36,513 bases of DNA from positions 1-36,513 of IMG/VR virus record IMGVR_UViG_3300049844_000214; one strand, given 5' to 3'. The notes beneath the pieces were generated by a model that was given only the letters and a program-made list of their open reading frames with translations, was not told the DNA's origin and searched no databases. Origin of the DNA: a virus (lineage: Duplodnaviria > Caudoviricetes). The position numbers were made by a program, and so were the translations under genes. This document shows, piece by piece, positions 9,476 to 20,249 of this stretch (within the stretch, counting starts at the first letter, position 1; every line of letters begins with the position of its first letter).

Positions 9476-9634
9476 ATGAAGACAAGAGCAGAACTTTTAG
9501 AGGACTTTGAAAAAGCCGCTAAGGCGCAGTGGCAACGTGGTCGAGAACTCGGCTACGAAGGTGAAGAGCTTCTGAGTTTCGTTTTAAGAGAACTAACCCT
9601 AGACATAGCCTACTTGATTAAACAGCTCGAATAA
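9476..9634 (+). CDS. Hypothetical protein (52 aa)
   Basis: ATG 9476 (MKTRAELLEDF...) follows the promoter. Confidence 0.55.
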   Translation: MKTRAELLEDFEKAAKAQWQRGRELGYEGEELLSFVLRELTLDIAYLIKQLE

Positions 9635-9797
9635 GGCGTGGCGGTCCTGGTTAGACACAGTCAGCCAAGACACGCCCTACCCGAAAACATTCCATCGCTC
9701 GAGGCTTTTCATATGCACGATACGGGCCGTGTCTCCATTGACACAATTGCACAAGTAATGCGGTATGTTATTATGTTGGTATTGAAGGCGAGGCGTT

Positions 9798-9983
9798 ATG
9801 AGAATGTTTATTACAGAAACCATGAGTAACGGCGAGATCAAAGAAACAGAAGTTTTCGATGTCGAAGAGTTCGGTCAAAAGATTATCGATGGTGTTTTCG
9901 CTTACCGAATCGATTACCTGTACTCACTTTCAAAAGCGGTACAGGAGACAAAACTCAAGACCTGTGAAACCAGCGCTGCCTGA
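9798..9983 (+). CDS. Hypothetical protein
   Basis: GAGG RBS; TGTTATTAT extended -10 upstream at about 9766. Confidence 0.55.
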   Translation: MRMFITETMSNGEIKETEVFDVEEFGQKIIDGVFAYRIDYLYSLSKAVQETKLKTCETSAA

Positions 9984-10215
9984 CAGTATCCAATTCCCAA
10001 CCGTGTTGAACAAGCCAACGCCACATGGTGGGGTATTTCTTTGAAGCCGTGGTTAATCCCAACTGATGCGCCTCTGAATGGTGCCCCCTACAAAGAGCCA
10101 TTAGGTTCGATATGGAGTTGTCTGCGTGTTTGCTACCACCGGACGCACCTCTTGTTTTGACGTGGTGGTGTTCGCCCAATCGCCCGCAAACTATGCAGTT
10201 CACAAGTTGTTTCAA
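9955..10215 (-). CDS. Small HNH/Zn-finger nuclease-like protein
   Basis: CxxC...HHVKTRGA.G...NLMALCRGHH.EAH..G motif. Confidence 0.75.
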   Translation of the reverse strand: MKQLVNCIVCGRLGEHHHVKTRGASGGSKHADNSISNLMALCRGHHSEAHQLGLTTASKKYPTMWRWLVQHGWELDTVRQRWFHRS

Positions 10216-10245
10216 AGGTAGTACCTAACCATTTCTCGCAAACCT

Positions 10246-10305
10246 GTGTGCAGTATCCTGATGTGCTGTTACGTAATGCATTATTGGGTGTAGTACAGTA
10301 ATCTA
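10246..10305 (+). ncRNA. 5-nt periodic tract E (putative guide RNA)
   Basis: gtgTg cagTa tccTg atgTg ctgTt acgTa atgCa ttaTt gggTg tagTa cagTa atcTa: 12 units with a pyrimidine (11 T) every 5th base, mostly preceded by G. Confidence 0.65.
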
Positions 10306-10308
10306 ATG

Positions 10309-10335
10309 GGCCACTTGATCGAAAGATCGGTGGCC
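10309..10335. terminator. GC-rich hairpin with GAAA loop, closing tract E
   Basis: GGCCAC(T)TGATC-GAAA-GATCGGTGGCC. Confidence 0.6.
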
Positions 10336-10341
10336 AAATTA

Positions 10342-10569
10342 TTAATGCGTAAATCCTTTATTTTCTTCAGCCCCATCAAGTAACTGCCTTGCCCACAACT
10401 GGAACGCTTCAATTGTGCATTTAAACTGATCTCTTTCAAACTCTCCTTGCGCATGCAATGCAATCGCTATCTTTTTAATTTCTAAATAGTCGTTTGGAGA
10501 AAGTCGACCCTCTACTATGCAATACTCCGTCGAGTTGTCTTCGTAGTCTTCATCATCCTCTTCTGACAT
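10342..10569 (-). CDS. Hypothetical protein (acidic N-terminus)
   Basis: ATG 10569 within track ORF 10342..10707, overlapping the end of the upstream gene. Confidence 0.55.
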   Translation of the reverse strand: MSEEDDEDYEDNSTEYCIVEGRLSPNDYLEIKKIAIALHAQGEFERDQFKCTIEAFQLWARQLLDGAEENKGFTH

Positions 10570-10741
10570 AGGATCCACATTCCACCGTATACTGCGACGA
10601 AAACTCTTCGCGGTCTTTACACATGAGACACAGGCGATTGTATTTCGAACGTGAGTGAAACTTCTTATTACACTTGAGACAGTCTCGCTTAACTGTTTTA
10701 GAAACACCTTTTGCTCTTCGTGCTCCGCCTCGTTTCGCCAT
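10553..10741 (-). CDS. Small Zn-finger protein
   Basis: CLKC..KF.S....NRLC..C motif. Confidence 0.65.
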   Translation of the reverse strand: MAKRGGARRAKGVSKTVKRDCLKCNKKFHSRSKYNRLCLMCKDREEFSSQYTVECGSYVRRG

Positions 10742-10756
10742 TAATTAAATTATGAG

Positions 10757-11449
10757 TTACTCGAACGGAATAAACAAAGGGGTGCGACCATTATTTAAAA
10801 CGACACCGCATCCAAGGACGGGTTTATTCCTCATGTACTTACCGTAAGCAAAAGCAAAAGAGGCTTCATCGATGAGGCAACCCACGTTCATGGCCCATAT
10901 GTTTTTCTTTATGTGATCAACTGCAGCGAAGGAATGAAGATGTCCAATGATCGTAGATATGGCTCCGTCAATTGCAGCATTACGATGTCCATCTTTACCG
11001 CTATAACCCATGCCGTGTATCACGCGAAATGGTTGCTTAGCTTCAACGATCCACTCTTCTTTCCAGTACCAACCTTTTGGAGCTTGAATAATTTCTTGGT
11101 AAGTTTTTAGTAACCGCTCTGGAATGCCTGCCTCTGATGCTTTTTTTAACCATCGTAATCCATGATTACTTATTGCAAGCTTCATTTCTGGAAATGCTTC
11201 ATACCAGAGAGAGAGTTCATTGATTGATTCCTCTAGCTCTACAACAGCGCTTAGTTTTGTGTTTGGGTCTTTGCCGTAAGAGCTAGCGAAGTAGAAATCC
11301 AACTCATCGCCGACGTGAAAACAGTTTGCGTCTGGGATTCTGTATTCTTTTTTCACGCGCTGAACGAATTCGAGTGAGCGCTTATGTTGAAACGGAATTT
11401 GAGTATCGGAGATTACAAGATATCTATCGGGATGAATTTTTGTGACGAT
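10757..11449 (-). CDS. Calcineurin-like metallophosphoesterase (probable ATC start)
   Basis: Motifs VISDTQ, VGDELD, SNH, IHG, GHLH. Motif I lies upstream of the track's GTG (11356), and the frame is bounded by an in-frame TGA near 11462-11464. Confidence 0.85.
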   Translation of the reverse strand: MVTKIHPDRYLVISDTQIPFQHKRSLEFVQRVKKEYRIPDANCFHVGDELDFYFASSYGKDPNTKLSAVVELEESINELSLWYEAFPEMKLAISNHGLRWLKKASEAGIPERLLKTYQEIIQAPKGWYWKEEWIVEAKQPFRVIHGMGYSGKDGHRNAAIDGAISTIIGHLHSFAAVDHIKKNIWAMNVGCLIDEASFAFAYGKYMRNKPVLGCGVVLNNGRTPLFIPFE

Positions 11450-11455
11450 AGAAAA

Positions 11456-11482
11456 TCCCCCTCACTTTAATTGTGAAGGGGA
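11456..11482 (-). promoter_or_regulatory. 10-bp hairpin covering the phosphoesterase RBS and ending tract D
   Basis: Minus strand TCCCCTTCAC-AATTAAA-GTGAGGGGGA followed by TTTT. Confidence 0.6.
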
Positions 11483-11485
11483 ATT

Positions 11486-11565
11486 TCAATTCAACAAAAC
11501 ATTACAATAAAAAACAACAACCCACTTAACCCAGCTTTAAAAGACTAAACGAGGCTGCGCATTAG
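11486..11565 (-). ncRNA. 5-nt periodic tract D (putative guide RNA)
   Basis: Minus strand cTaat gCgca gCctc gTtta gTctt tTaaa gCtgg gTtaa gTggg tTgtt gTttt tTatt gTaat gTttt gTtga aTtga: 16 units. Confidence 0.75.
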
Positions 11566-11572
11566 GTTTGCT

Positions 11573-11824
11573 TTATATATTACGTAGCCTATTTTTGGCT
11601 ACCGCCAATTGAAACTCAACTGAGGTGTTTCGGCTTGATAGTTCTTCATAGGCAACCTGGTACTTTTTCAGAACGTCCAATAAGAAAATCGTGTCAGAGA
11701 TAATGCCAATCTCGGCGTCTCTGTCATGCTCGTTACGTCTGATAATGAGTTCTATGCGGTGTAGTTCACCGTCCTTCAGTAGCTTCACCCGAATATTCTT
11801 GAGTGCTGCCATCGGTCTTGTCAA
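11573..11824 (-). CDS. Hypothetical coiled-coil protein
   Basis: ORF in the replication operon. Confidence 0.6.
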   Translation of the reverse strand: MTRPMAALKNIRVKLLKDGELHRIELIIRRNEHDRDAEIGIISDTIFLLDVLKKYQVAYEELSSRNTSVEFQLAVAKNRLRNI

Positions 11825-12209
11825 CCAATTCGTTTGATATGGTTTGGTTTACGATCTTCCACTCTAGATAGAATTCGGTCATCTTTTCTTTACCGTGACA
11901 CTTAAGACACTTCTGAAAGAACTCATCGTCCTTGAAGTTACCCGCTCTAAATAAATCATAAAGAAGCGCCTGAGTGGCCTCACTCTCTAAAGGGTTATCT
12001 CTTGCCCACCTCTGAGCATCAGCGAACTCTGTTTTGTCGGTCTCCGGAATATAGTTAATCCTGTGTAGTGGCTCATACCAAAGAGGTAGTCCCTTAGAAA
12101 ACTCAGGAGCAGATAAGCAAGGGCAGCGAAAGGAATAAGGGGCACACTTACGTTGCCATCTATGCTCGGCCCAAAAGATTCCCTTACCGTCACAAAGGTT
12201 ACATCTCAT
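11766..12209 (-). CDS. Hypothetical Zn-binding protein (CxxCxGxG...CxC)
   Basis: Cys motifs; coupled to the upstream gene. Confidence 0.65.
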   Translation of the reverse strand: MRCNLCDGKGIFWAEHRWQRKCAPYSFRCPCLSAPEFSKGLPLWYEPLHRINYIPETDKTEFADAQRWARDNPLESEATQALLYDLFRAGNFKDDEFFQKCLKCHGKEKMTEFYLEWKIVNQTISNELVDKTDGSTQEYSGEATEGR

Positions 12210-12738
12210 TACGAGTAAACCCTAAATTAATTTTTGGGATTGTGTTTTCAATACGATTTTTAATTATTTCACGTTCATACGTTACACGTTTAGCTTGATT
12301 TATTAACCCAGTAACTGTCTCTCGCCATTGAGCCTTTGTGCCCATCATTTGAGATCTATCGGCGGTAGCACATAAATCACTCCAACCGCCTTGCATTCGA
12401 ATCAATTGCCAACCAACTTCACCAATGTAGTCTCGAGCCATGGCGGGATTAGAATGCCCAAATTTCGAAACAGCTCCCCAAATTTTTTCTGTGATTTGTC
12501 TCGCCTCGTCTTCAACACTTGGCATAGAGCCCTTTAGTTTTTGTTTCAAAATAGCCGGCAAAGGACAACGGGTTATTTTTGGGTCTTCAGTGATCTCGCG
12601 AAAAACTTTATTTAAAGCATCGACAGGGATATCCGCTAAGTCTTCAGCCCACATCTTTACCGTCATGTCGGCCAGTGTCTCCCGATAATAAGCGGCGATG
12701 GTGAGAACAAATTTTATGTGCTCATCTAGTTTTTTCAT
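12199..12738 (-). CDS. Putative helicase loader/inhibitor (G39P/DUF6475-like)
   Basis: Directly after the initiator. W...L.D....P.PA.L and AVSKFG...GGWSDLC patterns. Confidence 0.65.
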   Translation of the reverse strand: MKKLDEHIKFVLTIAAYYRETLADMTVKMWAEDLADIPVDALNKVFREITEDPKITRCPLPAILKQKLKGSMPSVEDEARQITEKIWGAVSKFGHSNPAMARDYIGEVGWQLIRMQGGWSDLCATADRSQMMGTKAQWRETVTGLINQAKRVTYEREIIKNRIENTIPKINLGFTRNEM

Positions 12739-13528
12739 TTTTCGTCAGCCTTTCAAATTGTGCCTTCATTTGCTGCCCCTGGTTAGATAGCCTGGCATCA
12801 GAGGCGGTGTGCCAAACCCCAGTCGCAGCGTAAGCCTTCACCGAAGAAATATTTTGATACAACGCGGTAACGCTGTGGTGCGTTGTAATAAACCACGGAT
12901 CTTTAAGTTCAAAGAAAAAAGGGATCAGCTTCGAGAGGGTATCCCCCCCGGCGCTCTTAGCTAGGGCGTTCAAAAGACCCGCATCCTTCGGAGTTATTAC
13001 CGGATTAACTTGGTAAGTCTTTTTGTATTCTTCACAGTACACTGAAACACAATTTGGGATGACCTGAGGGCGCGAATGAAATGAGCGCGTAGTATTTGTT
13101 TGTTCTCTTGTTTGTTTACTTGTTTGTTCTCTTGTTTGTTTGGACGACATGGGTGTCACCGGGGTGACGACATGGGTGTCACCGGGGGGTGACATGGGTG
13201 TCACCGGGGGGGTGACATGGGTGTCGTATGGTTCATCGTCGTTTTTGAGGGGAGCGCACGACATGGATGTCACCCCTAAATCGTATTTATTGCACGACTT
13301 AAATGATCTGGTAATGGTCAAATATTTTAGTTTTTCAAGAGTAGTTATATGCCTTTGAACTTGTCTCTCGCTGAGTTTGGCTAACCTAGCTATTCTGGGG
13401 ATAGCAGGCCTCATATCAGGGTAATGACTAAGTATGGCAATTAGGACTAATTTCTCTGACGCCGAGATGTTTTTTAGTTCGCACAATGCAATTCTAGTAA
13501 CTAGTTCAAACTGAGTTTGTTTTTTCAT
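12722..13528 (-). CDS. Replication initiator (lambda O-like, N-terminal winged HTH)
   Basis: SEKLVLIAI...PAIPRIARLAKLSERQVQRHITTLEKLKYL...N.Y; central linker encoded by iterons. Confidence 0.85.
   Translation of the reverse strand: MKKQTQFELVTRIALCELKNISASEKLVLIAILSHYPDMRPAIPRIARLAKLSERQVQRHITTLEKLKYLTITRSFKSCNKYDLGVTSMSCAPLKNDDEPYDTHVTPPVTPMSPPGDTHVVTPVTPMSSKQTREQTSKQTREQTNTTRSFHSRPQVIPNCVSVYCEEYKKTYQVNPVITPKDAGLLNALAKSAGGDTLSKLIPFFFELKDPWFITTHHSVTALYQNISSVKAYAATGVWHTASDARLSNQGQQMKAQFERLTKNEKTR
13096..13276. repeat. Putative replication origin: iterons plus AT-rich repeats inside the initiator gene
   Basis: GACATGGGTGTC at 13146, 13169, 13191 and 13214, with variant GACATGGATGTC at 13260. 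Adjacent TTGTTTGTT-based 12-mers at 13096-13143. Confidence 0.85.
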
Positions 13529-13589
13529 GTTGATTTTGACAGGTAGAGTCGTATAAGATTGGGCCTCTGTTTTTTAGCAAAAAAATACT

Positions 13590-13638
13590 AACCCACGCTT
13601 TGAAAATGTCTAGTTTTCAGGTGTGGGTTTTTTATTTT
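13590..13638 (+). terminator. Intrinsic terminator-like hairpin (possibly bidirectional)
   Basis: AACCCACGCTTTGAAAA-loop-TTTTCAGGTGTGGGTT followed by a T-tract; A-tract upstream. Confidence 0.7.
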
Positions 13639-13656
13639 CTATCCGTGCAATGTGAA

Positions 13657-13887
13657 CTATTTGTTCATACCCGTCTCAACCCGACACCTTGGGCACAACT
13701 TCAACGACTCACTCGGGTGAAATGCCGTGCTGTCTGGGATTGTATAGCCCTCTCTCTTATACTGATTTAGTTTATTCCTTAGACAACGTATTGATAACCC
13801 TAAGCTTTCGGTTGCCTTTGTTCGATTCCAGTTATGTTTAGCGAGTGTGCTTATGATTAAGAATCTTTCAATCTCTTCGATCGTCAC
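13657..13887 (-). CDS. Fis-type HTH protein
   Basis: ERFLIISTL..HNWNRTKATESLGLSIRCLRNKLNQY matches the Fis/NtrC C-terminal HTH pattern. Confidence 0.85.
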   Translation of the reverse strand: MTIEEIERFLIISTLAKHNWNRTKATESLGLSIRCLRNKLNQYKREGYTIPDSTAFHPSESLKLCPRCRVETGMNK

Positions 13888-13914
13888 TTGATAATCGTAG
13901 CTTAGAATTAAAGA

Positions 13915-14235
13915 GTGACAATTCGATTCGCTATTAAGGGGAAACGCTGGCGAGTCACTCTGTTAACTGATCGGTCATTCTTTAAGCACGACCAAACAGC
14001 ATTGGCCTTATGTGAATTACCTCCTGATAGAAGGATTCTTTTAAAAAAATCACAGATAAATCTGCAAAATATTATGCATGAAGTGTTTCACGCATTTAAA
14101 TCTGAATGTTGTTTGAACAGTGCTGAGCTAGACTCGTCTCAGGTTGAAGAATTAATGTGTGATATTTTTGCTGAACACGGTGAAGAGGCTCTTGAATTGT
14201 CCCGTTGGATTCTTAAAGAAATAACAAAACAATAA
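13915..14235 (+). CDS. Small HExxH metallopeptidase-like protein
   Basis: MHEVFHA motif with downstream EE. Confidence 0.65.
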   Translation: MTIRFAIKGKRWRVTLLTDRSFFKHDQTALALCELPPDRRILLKKSQINLQNIMHEVFHAFKSECCLNSAELDSSQVEELMCDIFAEHGEEALELSRWILKEITKQ

Positions 14236-14310
14236 ATTACAGGAATCTACGAAACAGAATAAGACAATACGTTAGGATACACTAAAGAACAACAACCTAA
14301 GGCACATCAG
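14216..14310 (-). ncRNA. 5-nt periodic tract B (putative guide RNA), downstream of the RAMP gene
   Basis: Minus strand cTgat gTgcc tTagg tTgtt gTtct tTagt gTatc cTaac gTatt gTctt aTtct gTttc gTaga tTcct gTaat tTatt gTttt gTtat tTctt: 19/19 units have T in register. Confidence 0.85.
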
Positions 14311-14325
14311 CTTCAAAAACTGTGT

Positions 14326-14904
14326 TTAAATAACTTTGAATTTTGTTACGCGAAACCTTCCAAATGGACCTCCCTTAGAAACACGAAACGCTCCTATTCC
14401 AGCTCTCCGTCCAGCATCGTTCAATACTTGATGACAAATTTCTTGTGACAACAATTCTTCATCAATTTCTACAGTTGTTTTTACCTTCCACTTATCAAAA
14501 CGTGGACGACAGATCGCAACTGCACCCTTTAGATGGTTAGTTCCTTTCATAATATCAACTTCAAAGTTTTTGATCGGCTCATTGCTGTCATCTAAAAGCG
14601 TTATGTTCATATCAAGCGGACGAAACACACCGGCTGCAATAGCCTTTAAAGATCTTTTAGAATTAGTTTGCCTGTAGTCACTAGCTACCGCTTTGAATGC
14701 ACCACTTATGTATGTAGAAGGTATATAAAAAGAACCGTCTTCCGATTTATATGCGCCCTTTTCTGCAATCTCTCTCGGAGTTAATTCTTCCTTGTCCTGC
14801 TTTTTCTTCGTCTTCGCTCCAAGCAAACCAAACAAAGCCTCTTCGCTCATGCGGTGTTGAAGAAGTGCCGAATCTCCAGTCAACTCAACCTCTATGGTTT
14901 TCAT
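14326..14904 (-). CDS. Solitary Cas7-like RAMP-fold protein (192 aa; Vipr-like)
   Basis: AAGGAG RBS before ATG 14904. N-terminal strand IEVELTGDSALLQH, YIPSTYISGAF (compare Cas7/Csm3 IPGSSxKG), RPRF..W and C-terminal Gly-rich loop GIGAFRVSKGGPFGRF. Confidence 0.85.
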   Translation of the reverse strand: MKTIEVELTGDSALLQHRMSEEALFGLLGAKTKKKQDKEELTPREIAEKGAYKSEDGSFYIPSTYISGAFKAVASDYRQTNSKRSLKAIAAGVFRPLDMNITLLDDSNEPIKNFEVDIMKGTNHLKGAVAICRPRFDKWKVKTTVEIDEELLSQEICHQVLNDAGRRAGIGAFRVSKGGPFGRFRVTKFKVI

Positions 14905-14915
14905 TTGAACTCCTT

Positions 14916-15005
14916 TTAAATTAACAATACAAAACAGTACGAGACCGAACATAAACGCACCCTAAAACACATGACGCTAAGATACGCTAAAGAAGAGCAC
15001 TCTAG
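14916..15005 (-). ncRNA. 5-nt periodic tract A (putative guide RNA) in the RAMP gene leader
   Basis: Minus strand cTaga gTgct cTtct tTagc gTatc tTagc gTcat gTgtt tTagg gTgcg tTtat gTtcg gTctc gTact gTttt gTatt gTtaa tTtaa: 18/18 units have T in register. Confidence 0.85.
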
Positions 15006-15033
15006 TTCTACTTCGCCTCATATTTATGACGCA

Positions 15034-15062
15034 CTTATACACAACTAGACGCTGCGTGTAAA
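15034..15062 (-). promoter_or_regulatory. Sigma70-type promoter for tract A, RAMP gene and tract B
   Basis: Minus strand TTTACA-17 nt-TATAAG. Confidence 0.65.
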
Positions 15063-15063
15063 C

Positions 15064-15077
15064 TTAACAATTGTTAA
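15064..15077. promoter_or_regulatory. 14-bp perfect palindrome next to the -35 box (candidate operator)
   Basis: TTAACAATTGTTAA. Confidence 0.45.
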
Positions 15078-15079
15078 CG

Positions 15080-15838
15080 CTATTTAGGAGTGTAAATCTC
15101 TGCCAGCGCGTGGATTGGGTGGTCGGCTGGCTCCATTGGCTCAAACATGGCTTTAAATCCGCCCTGCCGCTCAATTTGCTTCAAGTGTGTCTTATAGATC
15201 CAAGTACGAAACCATGACGGTTTACACTTGTACATAGCGCTCGTCATGAGCCAAAGCATGGCATACTCTGACCAGTGTTTCTTCATTGGTAGTAACCACG
15301 TAAATGCGGCAGAACCCAATAACCATATAGCGCCGGTTGGGTCTACAAATTGAGCATTCGATACAACCTCGAGCATGTAAATCACATGCGGCTGCAAACT
15401 GAACCTAATTCTAGGGTCCTGTGGTTGTTGAGTGTCCCACCTTAGCTTCGATCGCTTAACTCTCGCATTAATCTCAGTCGCGGTGTCGAATCCAAACAAA
15501 CTCGCTCCAGCCGCTATAGCGATTAAATTGTCCACCGAATTAGGCAACGTTTTGTCGCCAGGACGACGGTCATATATTCCAATTCCAGATCTTAACTTTG
15601 TTAATATGCTTTCGAACTGTTTACGTTCTTTAATCGTTATGTGCTCACCACGAAGATAGTAAGCATAAACTAAAAATAACAATCCATTGTGGTTCAAAAC
15701 AGTTGGGCCCATTCCAAACCCAGGATGAGTTTCATCCTTTTCTAGTTTCATGAGGCCGTCGTCAGCTAGATACGATTGTTCGATAATTTTAACAGTATTA
15801 TTCAATATTTCATAATGAGCTGGAGGCGAATATTCCAT
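15080..15838 (-). CDS. Hypothetical alpha-helical protein (252 aa)
   Basis: Long ORF; no family recognised. Confidence 0.7.
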   Translation of the reverse strand: MEYSPPAHYEILNNTVKIIEQSYLADDGLMKLEKDETHPGFGMGPTVLNHNGLLFLVYAYYLRGEHITIKERKQFESILTKLRSGIGIYDRRPGDKTLPNSVDNLIAIAAGASLFGFDTATEINARVKRSKLRWDTQQPQDPRIRFSLQPHVIYMLEVVSNAQFVDPTGAIWLLGSAAFTWLLPMKKHWSEYAMLWLMTSAMYKCKPSWFRTWIYKTHLKQIERQGGFKAMFEPMEPADHPIHALAEIYTPK

Positions 15839-15885
15839 TTCTAAATTGTGACATCCGTTTTAATAGTTTCAAAATATGCCAATGC

Positions 15886-15950
15886 AATTTAGTGTTCTGT
15901 AAATTTATGTTTATTACGGTTTTGTAAATTTCTGTGGCGTTTTGTAATGT
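15886..15950 (+). ncRNA. 5-nt periodic tract C (putative guide RNA) in the SSB-like gene leader
   Basis: aattT agtgT tctgT aaatT tatgT ttatT acggT tttgT aaatT tctgT ggcgT tttgT aatgT: 13/13 units. Its variable dinucleotides match 16011-16037. Confidence 0.85.
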
Positions 15951-15971
15951 TAACAATTCGAAGGAGGTCGA

Positions 15972-16457
15972 ATGGGTTTATTTAATGCTAAAATTGAGAC
16001 GAGCGGTAATTCGAAGTACTTGACTTTGAAGTCCGGCGATAGATATGTCGGCACTTTTCAGGGCTCACCGAAAGAGGGTTGGGTGCTCTGGATCGACGGT
16101 AAGCCTCAACCCGCAGAGTACGGGACACCCGGCGCTAAGTTTCAGTTCGAAATGGCTTTCGTCTTGAAAGACACTTTTGAAGCCAAAATCTTTAAGGGCG
16201 GCGTTTCTATTTATTCACAACTCAAGAAACTGGAATCCGAAGGCTACGACTTACTCAAGACTTGGATTTCTATTTCTCGTAAGGGCGAGAAACTGGACAC
16301 CGAGTACATGGTGATGCCTATTCCACAATTCCAAATTCAAGGTGCCGATGCAATGAACATAGAAAAGGCTCTTGCTAAGTCACCCGCAAAACAAGCCAAT
16401 TTAGGCTCATTATTAACATCGGATGATGTGCCTTTTATGCGTAAGGAGTGGTTATGA
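15972..16457 (+). CDS. Putative single-stranded DNA-binding protein
   Basis: AAGGAGG RBS, beta-rich core with ISRKGEKLDTEYMV, and SSB-type DDVPF tip near the C-terminus. Confidence 0.7.
   Translation: MGLFNAKIETSGNSKYLTLKSGDRYVGTFQGSPKEGWVLWIDGKPQPAEYGTPGAKFQFEMAFVLKDTFEAKIFKGGVSIYSQLKKLESEGYDLLKTWISISRKGEKLDTEYMVMPIPQFQIQGADAMNIEKALAKSPAKQANLGSLLTSDDVPFMRKEWL
16011..16037 (+). other. Gapped target site matching tract C (NN-skip code)
   Basis: TCg AAg TAc TTg ACt TTg AAg TCc GGc versus tract C dinucleotides TC AA TA TT AC TT AA TC GG. Confidence 0.8.
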
Positions 16458-16735
16458 AACTAACAGACACGCAACGAGTAGCTATTAATAAACAACTAAC
16501 CGCGGGTCACTCTGCAGCTGATCTCGCCAAAGAGTACGGCGTCAGTACGAGCACGATTTACAACTTGAAAGACGCTAAACCTACTAAGCGAGTAAAGAGA
16601 CGTACTAAAAAGAAATCTGATCATAGCGAGCTTGTGATGCTTCGTGAGTCGAATACTTTTCTTATTCGTCGTAACGATGAGTTGAATCAGTTGATCGGTG
16701 AACTCTACGCTGAACAACGGCTTGATAATTACTAA
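16448..16735 (+). CDS. HTH DNA-binding protein with C-terminal coiled coil
   Basis: SAADLAKEYGVSTSTIYN. True start is probably ATG 16454. Confidence 0.75.
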   Translation: MVMKLTDTQRVAINKQLTAGHSAADLAKEYGVSTSTIYNLKDAKPTKRVKRRTKKKSDHSELVMLRESNTFLIRRNDELNQLIGELYAEQRLDNY

Positions 16736-16965
16736 TGGCAGGCCCAGTATTTAACCTCAATGAGACCCCTGATCGCGTAACCGTATCTCGGGGGCGTAAA
16801 ATATCGGACGGTCAGTACGGTAGTCACGACCTCTTCTTCAGTTACTCAACTGATTGCGAAGAGGGCGAGACCCCCGTTGATGCTTTTAGACGAGCGCTCG
16901 TTGAGGTGAATAGGGTCTTATCTGCTATGGAGAAGCAACTCATCGAGAGTCTGACACATAAATAA
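16735..16965 (+). CDS. Hypothetical protein
   Basis: TAATG stop/start coupling with the upstream gene. Confidence 0.65.
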   Translation: MAGPVFNLNETPDRVTVSRGRKISDGQYGSHDLFFSYSTDCEEGETPVDAFRRALVEVNRVLSAMEKQLIESLTHK

Positions 16966-16967
16966 AT

Positions 16968-17058
16968 CTTGGCATGATCCTCCAACGCATTCATGCTGAG
17001 GTTAATGGCGACAGGGGCGGGGGTTAGATTTTGGAGTAACTCGTCTCTGTCGCTTTAT
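16968..17058 (+). terminator. Two tandem hairpins (terminator or attenuator-like)
   Basis: CTTGGCATGA/TCATGCTGAG (16968-17000) and GCGACAGGGGCGGG...CTCGTCTCTGTCGC followed by TTTATT (17008-17053). Confidence 0.55.
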
Positions 17059-17073
17059 TAAGGAGACTAGATT

Positions 17074-17316
17074 ATGGAGCTTACCGGAGAAACAGCCATT
17101 GAAAGGTTGCGACGCGAGAAATCACAACTAAGAGCCGAGCTACCAGGGATGTGCGAACGCGTTTCGGTCGCCATTGCCATGCTCTATGAAGAATCCGACC
17201 CGGCCGTTAAGCTTAAGATCGAACCCATCATCATGCAGATCACCGACATGGAATGGAAATTCGAGCGAATCAAAGAAATTAAGACATTAGTAAAAGCACT
17301 CAGAGAGTCGGTATGA
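17074..17316 (+). CDS. Hypothetical coiled-coil protein
   Basis: AAGGAG RBS. Confidence 0.7.
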   Translation: MELTGETAIERLRREKSQLRAELPGMCERVSVAIAMLYEESDPAVKLKIEPIIMQITDMEWKFERIKEIKTLVKALRESV

Positions 17317-17558
17317 ATGGACAAGGCAAGTCACCCACTAGTGGCGGCAACCCTAATCTCAGTTGTGGTCGCTCTAGCGGTTATGTTGATCGTCCCAACC
17401 GAGCCAAAGAATCGACGCCTAAGCCAAGAGGAGCTATCGGCATGTCTCAATGCCGTATATGCCTTGGACAGGGTAAGTACCGAGACAAAGTCCTCTACAC
17501 GTGGCGGACGTGCTCGTGCACAGGTGGGTGGGGCGAATCGTGGGATCAAGACGAATGA
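17313..17558 (+). CDS. Hypothetical protein with CxxCxGxG...CxC motif
   Basis: ATGA overlap with the upstream gene. Start uncertain, and it competes with ORF 17317..17577. Confidence 0.4.
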   Translation: MNGQGKSPTSGGNPNLSCGRSSGYVDRPNRAKESTPKPRGAIGMSQCRICLGQGKYRDKVLYTWRTCSCTGGWGESWDQDE

Positions 17559-17761
17559 ACATCAAAGAGGCATGTGAGATTGTTTTTGAGGGCCGTGACC
17601 CAAAGACCGTGAAGCCTACGCATAATTATGCACGCTCTTATGCACCGGACCCACATGGGATTGATGACCCAGGCGATGAGATTATTCGTGGTTACCATAA
17701 GGATTGGTTCGATGATTATTTAGAGAGTCAGAAGTCGAAGAGGTGGGGAGACAAAGAATAA
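17555..17761 (+). CDS. Hypothetical protein
   Basis: MNIKEACE... start within track ORF 17501..17761, with an ATGA overlap. Confidence 0.55.
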   Translation: MNIKEACEIVFEGRDPKTVKPTHNYARSYAPDPHGIDDPGDEIIRGYHKDWFDDYLESQKSKRWGDKE

Positions 17762-17770
17762 ATAAACGTA

Positions 17771-17935
17771 AGTGCGGCCACGCGGGAACTACTGTAACAC
17801 CGTAGACGCGTAGATACTCAGATCTGTCATGGTTGTCGCGAGAGTAGGGTTCGAAACCGAAATCTAGCCTCTGGGAGTTGCCGGGTTACCTGGTTGACTG
17901 AAATGACTCTGTGGGGGTAACGGCCCACCCGCACT
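17771..17935 (+). ncRNA. Putative structured ncRNA (about 165 nt) with tRNA-like closing stem
   Basis: AGTGCGG/CCGCACT terminal stem, adjacent GTGGG/CCCAC arm and internal stems; no ORF. Confidence 0.45.
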
Positions 17936-17944
17936 ATTTTATAT

Positions 17945-18022
17945 GACTGGTTGGCGCACGGTGAGCGCGGCAGGTACCATAATCTAGACATGCAGGGGAT
18001 GGTTAAACTCCATCACCAGTCA
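17945..18022 (+). tRNA. tRNA-like element or degenerate tRNA (CAT in an enlarged anticodon loop)
   Basis: Acceptor GACTGGT/ACCAGTC, D-arm GCGC-ACGGTGA-GCGC, T-arm GATGG-TTAAACT-CCATC. Anticodon arm has a 12-nt loop; no encoded CCA. Confidence 0.6.
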
Positions 18023-18038
18023 CTTATTTTGTATTAAT

Positions 18039-18248
18039 ATGAAATTTATAATCGAATTCAACGAAGACGAGCGAGAACAACATCAAGACGCTCTTTTTGG
18101 CGCAAGCTACCGAATAGCTCTAGATGATATGAATAGTTGGCTAAGGGGTAAACTCAAGTATGAAGATCACTCGCCCGAAGCCTTTGCCGCTTACGGGGCC
18201 TGTAAAGATAAACTAAATGAATTACGGCGAGAGGCGGAGGAGTTGTAA
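18039..18248 (+). CDS. Hypothetical phage protein
   Basis: ORF with the IEFN.DE...WLR.KLKY pattern seen in small phage proteins. Confidence 0.7.
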   Translation: MKFIIEFNEDEREQHQDALFGASYRIALDDMNSWLRGKLKYEDHSPEAFAAYGACKDKLNELRREAEEL

Positions 18249-18406
18249 TGGTCGACGACGAACAACCAAACGAGCCAAAAGAAGACAAAAGCAAGCAAGA
18301 CGCTATCGACTATAAGCGAGACTTGCGTGATGCTGGCAGGTACCGAGAAAAGCTAATCGAACAAGAACTAGAGAAACGAAATGGCACAACTGATCGAGAC
18401 ACATAA
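18248..18406 (+). CDS. Small hypothetical protein (52 aa)
   Basis: GGAGG RBS and TAATG coupling (MVDDEQPNEPKEDK...); below the track's size cutoff. Confidence 0.5.
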   Translation: MVDDEQPNEPKEDKSKQDAIDYKRDLRDAGRYREKLIEQELEKRNGTTDRDT

Positions 18407-18584
18407 AGAAGAAATCCCAGCTGACGAAGCACTAATGAATTTATTCGACAAGAGTGAGTTACTTGCTACAAAGCGAGATGCTGAGAAAAATAAAAAGATC
18501 ACAACAATCAAGAAAAAGATCGGCTCAATATTCGGAGGCGAATTCGTCGTATCTATCACTTTTGATTTTAGGAGTAAGAAATGA
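18381..18584 (+). CDS. Hypothetical protein
   Basis: Co-oriented ORF. Confidence 0.55.
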   Translation: MAQLIETHKEEIPADEALMNLFDKSELLATKRDAEKNKKITTIKKKIGSIFGGEFVVSITFDFRSKK

Positions 18585-18814
18585 AGCCAGAAAATAACGA
18601 CCGTTTATATAGCCTTATTAAAGACATTGAGACCGTACAATCAGACCTTTGTTATGCTCTCGATCATTGTGAGGATTTACCAGATCGAACAACATTCTAT
18701 ATGAATAGCGCTCTTACAAGCCTTGAAAGCGCTAGAATTATTGCAAACGAATTACTTTATCCAATACAGAAGGGTTCAAATGAAACAACTACTACCACTA
18801 CTGCTACTCTCTAG
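18581..18814 (+). CDS. Hypothetical protein
   Basis: AGGAG RBS and ATGA overlap. Confidence 0.6.
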   Translation: MKPENNDRLYSLIKDIETVQSDLCYALDHCEDLPDRTTFYMNSALTSLESARIIANELLYPIQKGSNETTTTTTATL

Positions 18815-20249
18815 CTGCACATTCACTGCGAATATAAACCCCCCCGAAATAACACCATCACCGTCAACTTCTGTGGGGGTATCGCCGACGCCTAGTGTGA
18901 GCCCGACACCTGTCGTGAGTGTGACTCCAACTATTTCACCGACTCCTGTTATTACTACTTCACCAATAACCACTCCAAATAAAGCCTATTTAGGCTCTAA
19001 ATTAGATCTTTCTTGTAGCGCTCCCATTTTAGTGCCCGTGTTCACATCTAAGGTTACCGCCTACGTTCAAAAAGATTCTGATCTTGCTACTATTGATCTA
19101 TCGAAAACCGATACTGTCTTATTTAAGCGCGGAGGCACCTACACACTAAGTAAGCAGTTCTTTGTTTCTCGTGGACTCTTCGGTGCTTACGGCGAAGGGG
19201 CTAAGCCAATCGTTATTGCTCCAAGCGGATTTGTCAGAACCAATACAGCAAAGAATCTAGTCATTCGTGATCTTGTTTTGAAATCATCCCCAAAGTCTCT
19301 TGAGCGAGTGAACGTTCAGAACGACGCGATCCGAGTGGGCCCAGGCTCCGAGAATATTCTAATTGAAAACATGGAGATTGATTCCTTTCGAACTGGCTTC
19401 ATCGCAGAAAACGCTAACGTTAAGAATGTCGTCCTGAGAAATAACAAGATCACCAATTCCTTTTCGTTCGGCGCGAACGCACCACACGCACAAGGCGCCT
19501 ATATTGAAGGAGTTGACGGTGTAGTCCTAGACGGTAACCTCTTCGATCATAATGGATGGAAAGAGGGGCAACACAGATCTATCTTTAATCACAACGCCTA
19601 TGTACAGGTGAATAATAAGTGCCTAATTGCCGAAGGTAACGTCTTTAAAAACGGTTCTAATTTCGGGCTTCAAGCTAGAGGGGGCGGCACGATTAGAAAT
19701 AATAAATTCATCGGTAACGCTAACCACATGGAGTTTGGATACTGTAACGGCGGCATGGTTGAACTCTACAAGGTGCCTGTCGGTGTGAGTGGCGAGGTTA
19801 CTGGCAATATGTTCGTTGGCTCTTACGACTGGGGTCGCGGTGGAATCAAGTTCGGTAACACTCTACAAGCGAAAGCCGGTAATAATACTTTCGTCGGCGA
19901 GAGTGGCCCACTCATTAAGGCCGAACCCGTTGCATATGATATTGCGCGCCAACGCGGTATCGGTGTTCATAACCTTAAGTTTGAAGGCAATAACTTCGTT
20001 TACAACATTAAGCCCGTAAACCGACTTGTCGTTCAAGGTAAGGCGGGGGGGCCCGTGTACTTAAGAGCACCCGGCGATATCGCTGATAAGGCCGGTAATG
20101 TTTTGATTTCTTTTCAGTACCTGGGTGGCGATCGAGAGGGTACCGGGATCAAGTGGACAGGAGAGCCGAAACTTATTAACGATATCTATCCTAGAGGGTT
20201 TTCAGAGGATGTTAAGTTCGTTGAGTTAAAGGACAAGCCTAGCCTATGA
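18780..20249 (+). CDS. Lipoprotein with Pro/Thr/Ser linker and right-handed beta-helix (polysaccharide lyase/depolymerase-like)
   Basis: MKQLLPLLLLSSC lipobox, TPSPS-type linker, FKRGGTY and Asn-ladder repeats (VLRNNKI, LDGNLFDHNG, IRNNKFIGN). Confidence 0.75.
   Translation: MKQLLPLLLLSSCTFTANINPPEITPSPSTSVGVSPTPSVSPTPVVSVTPTISPTPVITTSPITTPNKAYLGSKLDLSCSAPILVPVFTSKVTAYVQKDSDLATIDLSKTDTVLFKRGGTYTLSKQFFVSRGLFGAYGEGAKPIVIAPSGFVRTNTAKNLVIRDLVLKSSPKSLERVNVQNDAIRVGPGSENILIENMEIDSFRTGFIAENANVKNVVLRNNKITNSFSFGANAPHAQGAYIEGVDGVVLDGNLFDHNGWKEGQHRSIFNHNAYVQVNNKCLIAEGNVFKNGSNFGLQARGGGTIRNNKFIGNANHMEFGYCNGGMVELYKVPVGVSGEVTGNMFVGSYDWGRGGIKFGNTLQAKAGNNTFVGESGPLIKAEPVAYDIARQRGIGVHNLKFEGNNFVYNIKPVNRLVVQGKAGGPVYLRAPGDIADKAGNVLISFQYLGGDREGTGIKWTGEPKLINDIYPRGFSEDVKFVELKDKPSL

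Follow-up and report, generated by a model that had tools for sequence, protein, structure and literature searches.

A tract of 5-nt units in the leader of a phage gene for a single-stranded DNA-binding (SSB)-like protein matches the coding sequence of that same gene over nine consecutive units, with two bases read and one skipped. The DNA analysed, hereafter the window, is a stretch of 36,513 nt; it is a phage genome with 127-nt terminal repeats and with terminase, capsid and tape-measure genes. As judged from its sequence, the window carries a VIPR system with an NGT-type repeat, VIPR being a CRISPR-related silencing system published in 2026 (10.64898/2026.04.26.720920; 10.64898/2026.04.26.720927; these and the other sources are cited for their accessible text). 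We consider the most likely single reading, with a probability of roughly 45%, to be that the guide of this tract (tract C) together with Vipr would repress its own SSB-HTH operon as a feedback loop, and a weapon against kin phages is the main rival. The features concerned are as follows.

10245..10299, plus strand: tract E, stand-alone, 11 units, then a hairpin-like inverted repeat (by eye); the weakest tract; no self-match
11494..11553, minus strand: tract D, stand-alone, 12 units, then a hairpin-like inverted repeat (by eye); no self-match
14219..14323, minus strand: tract A, which follows vipr directly and has 18-21 units; no self-match
14326..14904, minus strand: vipr, stand-alone RAMP gene with likely start at 14904 (192 aa), within the mechanical open reading frame (ORF) 14326-14952
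14919..15003, minus strand: tract B, 17 units in the vipr leader, 3' end resembling that of tract C; no self-match
15848..15875, plus strand: weak sigma-70-like promoter candidate (9/12 matches), start near 15882 just before tract C
15886..15950, plus strand: tract C, 13 NN+N(G/T)T units found by repeat scan, predicted vrRNA guide in the leader of the SSB-like gene
15961..15967, plus strand: ribosome-binding-site-like purine run in the sequence, 10 nt after the last tract C unit
15972..16457, plus strand: gp32-like single-stranded DNA-binding protein gene, 161 aa (fold match and weak PHROG match)
16011..16037, plus strand: gapped self-target in the SSB-like gene (codons 14-22), matched 18/18, or 19/20 once codon 13 (16008-16010) is included
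16448..16735, plus strand: helix-turn-helix (HTH) gene that overlaps the end of the SSB gene at its stop (Pfam HTH_38 at E 7e-6, narrowly short of the cut-off)

Results

Tract C and its gapped self-match

Scanning the window for period-5 spacers revealed five vrRNA-type tracts of 5-nt units, with 71 units altogether. The third spacer base was T in 69 of these units, the second was G in 48 and T in 18, and the first was G in 8. The repeat is of the NGT type and fits the YNNNG variant listed for VIPR (10.64898/2026.04.26.720920), not the canonical GGY; with a first G in 8/71 units, the window falls outside VIPR type II (SUSP1-like; GGY, 3' pseudoknot tail, vap1). Tracts B and C run directly into ribosome sites. 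A tandem-repeat scan reported no CRISPR array, and Rfam gave no match. Self-targets of tracts A, B, D and E did not rise above shuffles. When external targets were sought, a 9-unit seed of tract A gave two homologous matches with unmatched flanks, indistinguishable from chance at that collection size; an 8-unit seed of tract B gave nine matches, none extendable, and an 8-unit seed of tract C gave ten, none within an SSB relative. The 18-base pattern of tract C had zero matches in viral_contigs.

Units 3-11 of tract C (15896-15940) equal positions 1-2 of codons 14-22 (SKYLTLKSG) of ORF 15972-16457, guide and target both lying on the plus strand with 70 nt between them. The preliminary description had reported these units at 15896-15940 and 16011-16037, an 18/18 match about 70 nt downstream in the same sense, and a skipped base that is the wobble position; units and coordinates were correct as written, and the guide is indeed in codon frame. 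It did not mention that the tract extends to 13 units (15886-15950) with unmatched flanks. The 18/18 match arose at a step of 3 only, and skips of 0, 2 and 3 bases gave nothing comparable. Matches per unit along the tract were 0,1,2,2,2,2,2,2,2,2,2,0,1, that is 20/26 (77%) over 13 units, 20/24 without unit 1 and 19/20 over units 2-11. There was zero recoding within the nine units: synonymous escape is possible at 4/9 target codons (two Ser and two Leu, two of them via a single transition), and none is used. The repeat frame of tract C is unbroken over 13 units, its spacers are degenerate (middle base T in 4/13), and no hairpin or tail was found after it. One contig of public run X1 spans 9500-19500 with zero differences; this run may be the window's source, so it does not count as independent. 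At window positions 16009-16023, overlapping the target, are one 8-bp palindrome and two others of 4-6 bp; if they serve as a protein operator or for methylation, binding could be modulated.

When both strands were scanned 5-to-3 without bias, no other run in the window was as long as the 9-unit one, the runners-up reaching 7. Shuffling the unit order of tract C 300 times never gave 9 perfect units (maximum 7) or 19/20 (maximum 17). The composition-corrected chance of the match was 3.9e-11 per position and 2.9e-6 per genome, and the expectation was 4.4e-5 for the 31 possible nine-unit starts in the five tracts, about 1e-7 when targets are limited to the 200 nt downstream and 0.10 if any genome position may act as a guide. 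The significance of the match thus comes from tract C being defined independently, by its spacers, and for such spacer-defined tracts the negligible chance claimed at first was confirmed.

The vipr gene

The vipr gene is about 1 kb from tract C, is flanked by tracts A and B, and encodes a single RAMP homologue outside a CRISPR-cas locus. The protein had no Pfam match, and its structure model matched Csm3/Cas7 chains (95 matches at E<=1e-3). An alignment of Vipr with 43 of its 155 relatives matched the Felixounavirus-type protein ESCO56_00118 (hhalign 97.3%, E 2.4e-11), on which the identity of Vipr rests as a stand-in for SUSP1 Vipr. ESCO56_00118 has His17, Cys173, Asp177, Trp178 and Arg179 in SUSP1 numbering and is flanked by GGY arrays. 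His33, Arg149 and Arg190 of the window Vipr correspond to SUSP1 His17, Arg138 and Arg179, and the G-loop residue Asp177 of SUSP1 is Ala188.

In SUSP1, Asp177 reads the first G of GGY (10.64898/2026.04.26.720927). Residue and repeat were both readable at 77 loci: the first base was G in 7-32% of units at the 17 Ser/Ala loci and in 12-100% (median about 86%) at the 60 Asp loci, in rows that include duplicates and whose Ser/Ala members are mostly one clade. That the first G is lost where the G-loop Asp is lost agrees with the structure and, because of duplicates and shared descent, is no independent test of it. The G-loop Asp is thus a candidate handle on repeat specificity, confounded by descent.

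Tracts stand directly 5' of vipr in 5/12 scorable clade loci (window 14919-15003, minus strand; L006, L008, L029, L030 and L118), often reaching the ribosome site. By coating its own leader, Vipr could exert translational feedback.

The SSB-like gene, its relatives and its leader

The three top Foldseek matches of the SSB model were gp32/RB69 SSB (E 3e-3 to 1e-2). Aligned to the gp32 type by VIA-align, the model gave Z 8.2 (rmsd 2.9, 128 aligned), just 1 Z unit above BRCA2, and PHROG 1607 was matched weakly (E 3.8e-4). We hold with moderate confidence that the modelled protein has a gp32-like OB-fold core, a fold from which it may be expected to bind ssDNA. Both the RAMP effector and the SSB-like target of the preliminary description were therefore supported, the former by the hhalign match to a Vipr-type protein and the latter by the gp32-like fold matches.

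The SSB and HTH genes likely form one operon, presumably an early one. No terminator-like site was found between tract C and the SSB gene; promoter-like sites were not enriched over shuffles (10 vs 7.7 +/- 2.7), and the leader folded no better than shuffles (z -0.30). Among the 107 mechanical ORFs, no integrase was found in the 62 compared with PHROGs and the 21 compared with Pfam, and a repressor-substitute role in lysogeny is therefore not favoured. Elsewhere in the window, tandem 12/24-nt and 23-nt repeats at 13095-13225, in an O-like replication initiator gene (12722-13528), are likely origin iterons, and among small genes at 18723-20249 (plus strand) lies a gene whose 508-aa product has a linker rich in Pro and Thr and matches pectate-lyase/NosD beta-helix families weakly.

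The SSB-like protein has 344 relatives, of which the best 150 were aligned, the 149 other than the window protein being <50% identical to it. Within these best 150 of 344, all 9 units fit the window protein only, the next best being 8 units (one protein) and 7 (two), and Thr18 occurs in 4/149 relatives. Unit 2 of tract C is AG, as against AAT (Asn) in the window's gene, and Ser is commoner than Asn at that position (36 vs 11 of 149). Unit 12 would encode Phe or Leu at position 23, where 0/149 relatives have either. Since the relatives are all <50% identical, the guide appears aimed at self or close kin, without telling which.

Closer relatives of the SSB were sought in several collections. A word search returned the query alone, viral contigs gave three weak loci that the SSB profile did not confirm, and nothing was matched in 131 genomes from the phylum to which the sole MAG with a clade Vipr belongs. 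With the window protein as the query, no Vipr was matched in the annotated phage collection. These searches found no sibling phage, nor any relative in which a leader tract accompanies a matching SSB gene; the sole Vipr-clade record with an SSB relative, G005, is without the leader tract.

Guides and targets in related loci

The Vipr search set consisted of 80 metagenomic loci (the best of 143), 21 viral loci and a single contig from an Oligoflexales MAG. Step-3 self scores of at least 13 were reached by 2 of 398 tracts (101/105 sequences; false tracts and duplicates included), namely tract C and a guide of L007 that targets the L007 vipr, and controls reached this score 0 times at step 2 and once each at step 4, at step 5 and with shuffled tracts. 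No further self-match was found in the whole or nearly whole records G001-G007, G009 and G010. A motif survey covered 128 loci from 9/64 parts of viral_contigs, with full flanks for 80, and yielded 130 tracts in 44 loci, again with false tracts and duplicates. Four of its scores were at least 14: two simple repeats, one at shuffle level and one of 37/48 to an adjacent gene (L210), and these 130 tracts held no non-repetitive perfect self-match. The L210 tract (6654-6535, minus strand) is a solo tract of 24 units with CGT spacers and a hairpin, in a 14-kb locus without a Vipr match; its target lies about 200 nt downstream, apparently antisense to the neighbouring gene.

Four guides of relatives had targets in cross-matching. 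The L012 guide matched L066 and L069 at 18/18 vs 14/18 in its own copy, the L066 guide matched L012 and L074 at 18/18 vs 15/18, the L007 guide matched vipr of its relative L005 at 27/28 vs 26/28 in its own vipr, one Ser codon-family swap apart, and the L077 guide matched L066 at 20/20, its own copy being absent from the short contig. The own copy thus scored below the rival in 3/3 relatives scorable for both. In two of those three the guide also stands upstream of the own homologue, so this layout alone does not imply feedback. As cores were chosen from the best match and scores of 16-18 also arose in the controls (2 rows at step 2, 4 at step 4), lone 18-point cross-matches are borderline; the in-frame, reciprocal placement in homologous genes supports them. 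Own copies being normally recoded, tract C is the exception.

Targeting is reciprocal among L012:2469-2583, L066:937-1066 and L077:780-934, whose guides match rival gene copies in the operon downstream of vipr. From their sequences we take the targeted genes to be NTPase-like and SSB-like, and one of the guides of the three recoded relatives presumably aims at an SSB-like gene. The L007 guide (L007:7676-7750, target L007:7277-7318; G004) is the first after vipr and spells a conserved vipr motif, which the window vipr matches at 21/28. Long arrays of 9-26-unit tracts with short purine-rich linkers, a frame shift and no tails occur in L005:4421-5242, L007:7676-8536, L026 and L027 and resemble published staggered arrays.

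Unmatched ends of the guide

Across 60 clade guides, a set that includes the window's own tracts, the first unit was AA in 31/60 and the last AA, TT or GA in 40/60, the entropy being 2.35 bits for the first unit, 2.97 for the last and 3.87 inside. The penultimate unit was TT in 12/60 vs 34/495 internal units, a modest bias. Tract C starts with AA and ends with TT and AA, tract B ends almost identically, and 3/4 of the mismatched tract C units are terminal. Because Phe and Leu are absent at position 23, and because of the terminal bias and the likeness to tract B, the 3' units look like scaffold; for the same 0/149, a rival allele is hardly what unit 12 encodes. Scaffold is thus the likely role of unit 1 and of the final two units of tract C, and the single informative mismatch would then be unit 2, at the end that engages last in SUSP1. 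As a counter-case, the L007 guide matches its target through its last unit. Engagement in SUSP1 runs 3' to 5', binding beginning at the 3' units (10.64898/2026.04.26.720927), and by analogy the 3' mismatches of tract C would fall in the nucleation region.

Discussion

The proposed self-repression, which the preliminary description had also put forward and which is supported in part, rests on one genome, and we infer every step of it beyond the sequence match. Transcription would start near 15882, and the leader RNA of tract C would load Vipr, a coat that might in addition obstruct the ribosome site, which lies 10 nt further on. The tract C complex would bind the template strand at 16011-16037 and block RNA polymerase, leaving a transcript of ~130 nt that contains the whole guide; the guide would thus still be made while rising amounts of Vipr lower the expression of SSB, the HTH gene and the genes downstream. 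Co-infecting kin that share the SSB allele would be silenced by this complex as well.

The sequences show the match itself, a Vipr gene at a distance of 1 kb, a single repeat type in all five tracts, and a skip-1 code that also holds between relatives. In favour of self-repression, the exact 9-unit core is far beyond chance. The guides of L012, L077 and L066 match rival genes likewise, with 9-10 perfect units and unmatched ends; since such a core is the look of real targets, the window's own SSB gene appears to be on-target. The target shows no synonymous escape, whereas the own copy of L007 differs by exactly a Ser swap. The terminal-unit bias of the clade guides, the like ends of tracts B and C, the misfit of unit 12 with every SSB relative, the fit of all nine units to the window protein only among the 150 aligned, the lack of a viral_contigs match to the 18-base pattern, the leader tracts before vipr in clade loci and the autoregulation of T4 gp32 also speak for it. 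Against it, 77% over 13 units is below the 80% cut of the VIPR survey (10.64898/2026.04.26.720920), relatives' guides match the rival better than their own copy, the two 3' mismatches lie where SUSP1 binding starts, unit 2 fits a Ser-13 kin allele, tract C is without hairpin or tail, the penultimate-unit bias is modest, and the last unit of the L007 guide does match.

It is rather unlikely, in our estimate, that the guide evolved against the SSB of close unsampled relatives, e.g. a Ser-13 allele, with the phage's own gene escaping or tolerating it through the mismatches in units 2 and 12-13. Attack on rivals is the published role of VIPR (10.64898/2026.04.26.720920; 10.64898/2026.10.15.759431), and the recoded own copies of 3/3 scorable relatives, the L210 solo guide, the 3'-first nucleation of SUSP1 (10.64898/2026.04.26.720927) and the fit of unit 2 to Ser agree with such a role. 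However, the core is without recoding, unit 12 fits none of the 149 SSB relatives, and searches with the 18-base pattern and the 8-unit seed of tract C found no better-matching allele. Moreover, the L007 guide has its better target in a rival despite one mismatch (27/28), and the satellite targets of SUSP1 match at 89% on average, so that the own match of 19/20 should still bind.

A recent accident or a silent relic, that is, a match without a selected role, is improbable, its routes being taken together: recombination may have placed a targeted allele by the guide, the guide may have been newly written from the adjacent gene, or the leader tract may never be processed into a working guide. 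Tract C is the single case among the 398 + 130 tracts scanned (false tracts and duplicates included), and its missing tail or hairpin and degenerate spacers would suit a relic. The 70 nt between guide and target, however, leave a small window for recombination, tract B and several relatives' leader tracts likewise lack a hairpin, and the repeat frame is intact over 13 units. As no sibling genome was found, a guide against kin and an accident or relic stay alongside self-repression.

Far less probable is a purely translational operator, in which the leader repeats load Vipr, or form an unstructured SSB site like that of T4 gene 32, and block the ribosome site, DNA targeting being incidental. 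Tract C ends 10 nt before the ribosome site, tract B is placed likewise before vipr, and the leader folds no better than shuffles; this would leave unexplained why the free dinucleotides spell the downstream gene. A chance match or assembly artefact is very unlikely: the expectation of 0.10 holds for unrestricted starts, whereas the tract is defined by its spacers (4.4e-5 for the five tracts together, ~1e-7 for targets in the 200 nt downstream), the guide is in codon frame, 0/300 shuffles equal it, and one contig spans the region without differences.

If self-repression holds, viral RAMPs would be programmable transcription factors of the phage's own cycle, beyond weapons. VIPR has been proposed to be ancestral to CRISPR and is described as a tool of mobile-element conflict that lacks or avoids self-targets; should a guide in a gene's leader indeed act on that gene, regulation of genes would join the natural roles of VIPR. 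We tentatively suggest that tract C may be the first VIPR guide for self-regulation, built into the 5' leader of the mRNA that it shuts off, a self-sustaining switch timing replication genes, in which the Vipr roadblock would cut the transcript down to the guide. With guide and template 70 nt apart, a locus that works in this way would be a compact natural test of which units count and how guides are written. If the guide is instead aimed at kin, this is an ordinary new VIPR locus.

Comparison with known systems

The preliminary description had proposed DNA targeting by a non-contiguous code that skips the wobble base. Such targeting is supported, but a new code was rejected, since the published account of VIPR (10.64898/2026.04.26.720920) already covers the skip-1 code, alignment with the wobble base, silencing by sites on either strand and variants of the NGY type. 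What is new is the unrecoded self-target in the gene's own leader. In SUSP1 the repeats carry a coat of Vipr, which pairs their NN bases with DNA and can silence transcription whichever strand the site is on. The window shares with VIPR (10.64898/2026.04.26.720920; 10.64898/2026.04.26.720927) a stand-alone phage RAMP gene flanked by tracts of 5-nt repeats with 9-16 units, a code that reads two bases and skips the wobble base, and no CRISPR array in a tandem-repeat scan. Unlike VIPR as published, its spacer is N(G/T)T instead of GGY, the G-loop Asp177 is Ala, and neither a tail of the pseudoknot type nor a vap gene was identified. For types III and V, as for the P. fulva clade, self-targeting of at least 80% is given as absent (10.64898/2026.04.26.720920). 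Literature searches on VIPR, vrRNAs and self-targeting led only to the VIPR preprints cited here, whose data tables may list a self-target.

As with solo and anti-vipr vrRNAs (10.64898/2026.10.15.759431), guides occur away from vipr and have wobble-aligned targets in homologues of related phages. The self scores of those vrRNAs are below their rival scores and autoimmunity is avoided, whereas the core in the window matches self perfectly. The non-canonical VIPR repeats WGT/NN and TGH/NN (10.64898/2026.10.21.760802) likewise combine a degenerate trinucleotide with a Vipr-like fold, and the accessible text on them mentions no self-target.

Repression of its own locus by an RNA-guided defence effector is common to the proposed loop and to the regulatory crRNA-like mini-arrays of CRISPR-Cas (10.1101/2023.03.03.530964), tracr-L and CreR. 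Those regulators pair contiguously and partially with promoters of cas or cargo genes, unlike the window match, which is gapped and lies inside a phage replication gene with the guide in that gene's leader. T4 gp32 is autoregulated by autogenous translational repression (PMC535899), so tight control of an SSB has precedent. Both cases have a gp32-fold SSB with a control element in the leader; in T4 the SSB acts on its own mRNA, whereas the predicted controller here is an RNA-guided Vipr complex on DNA.
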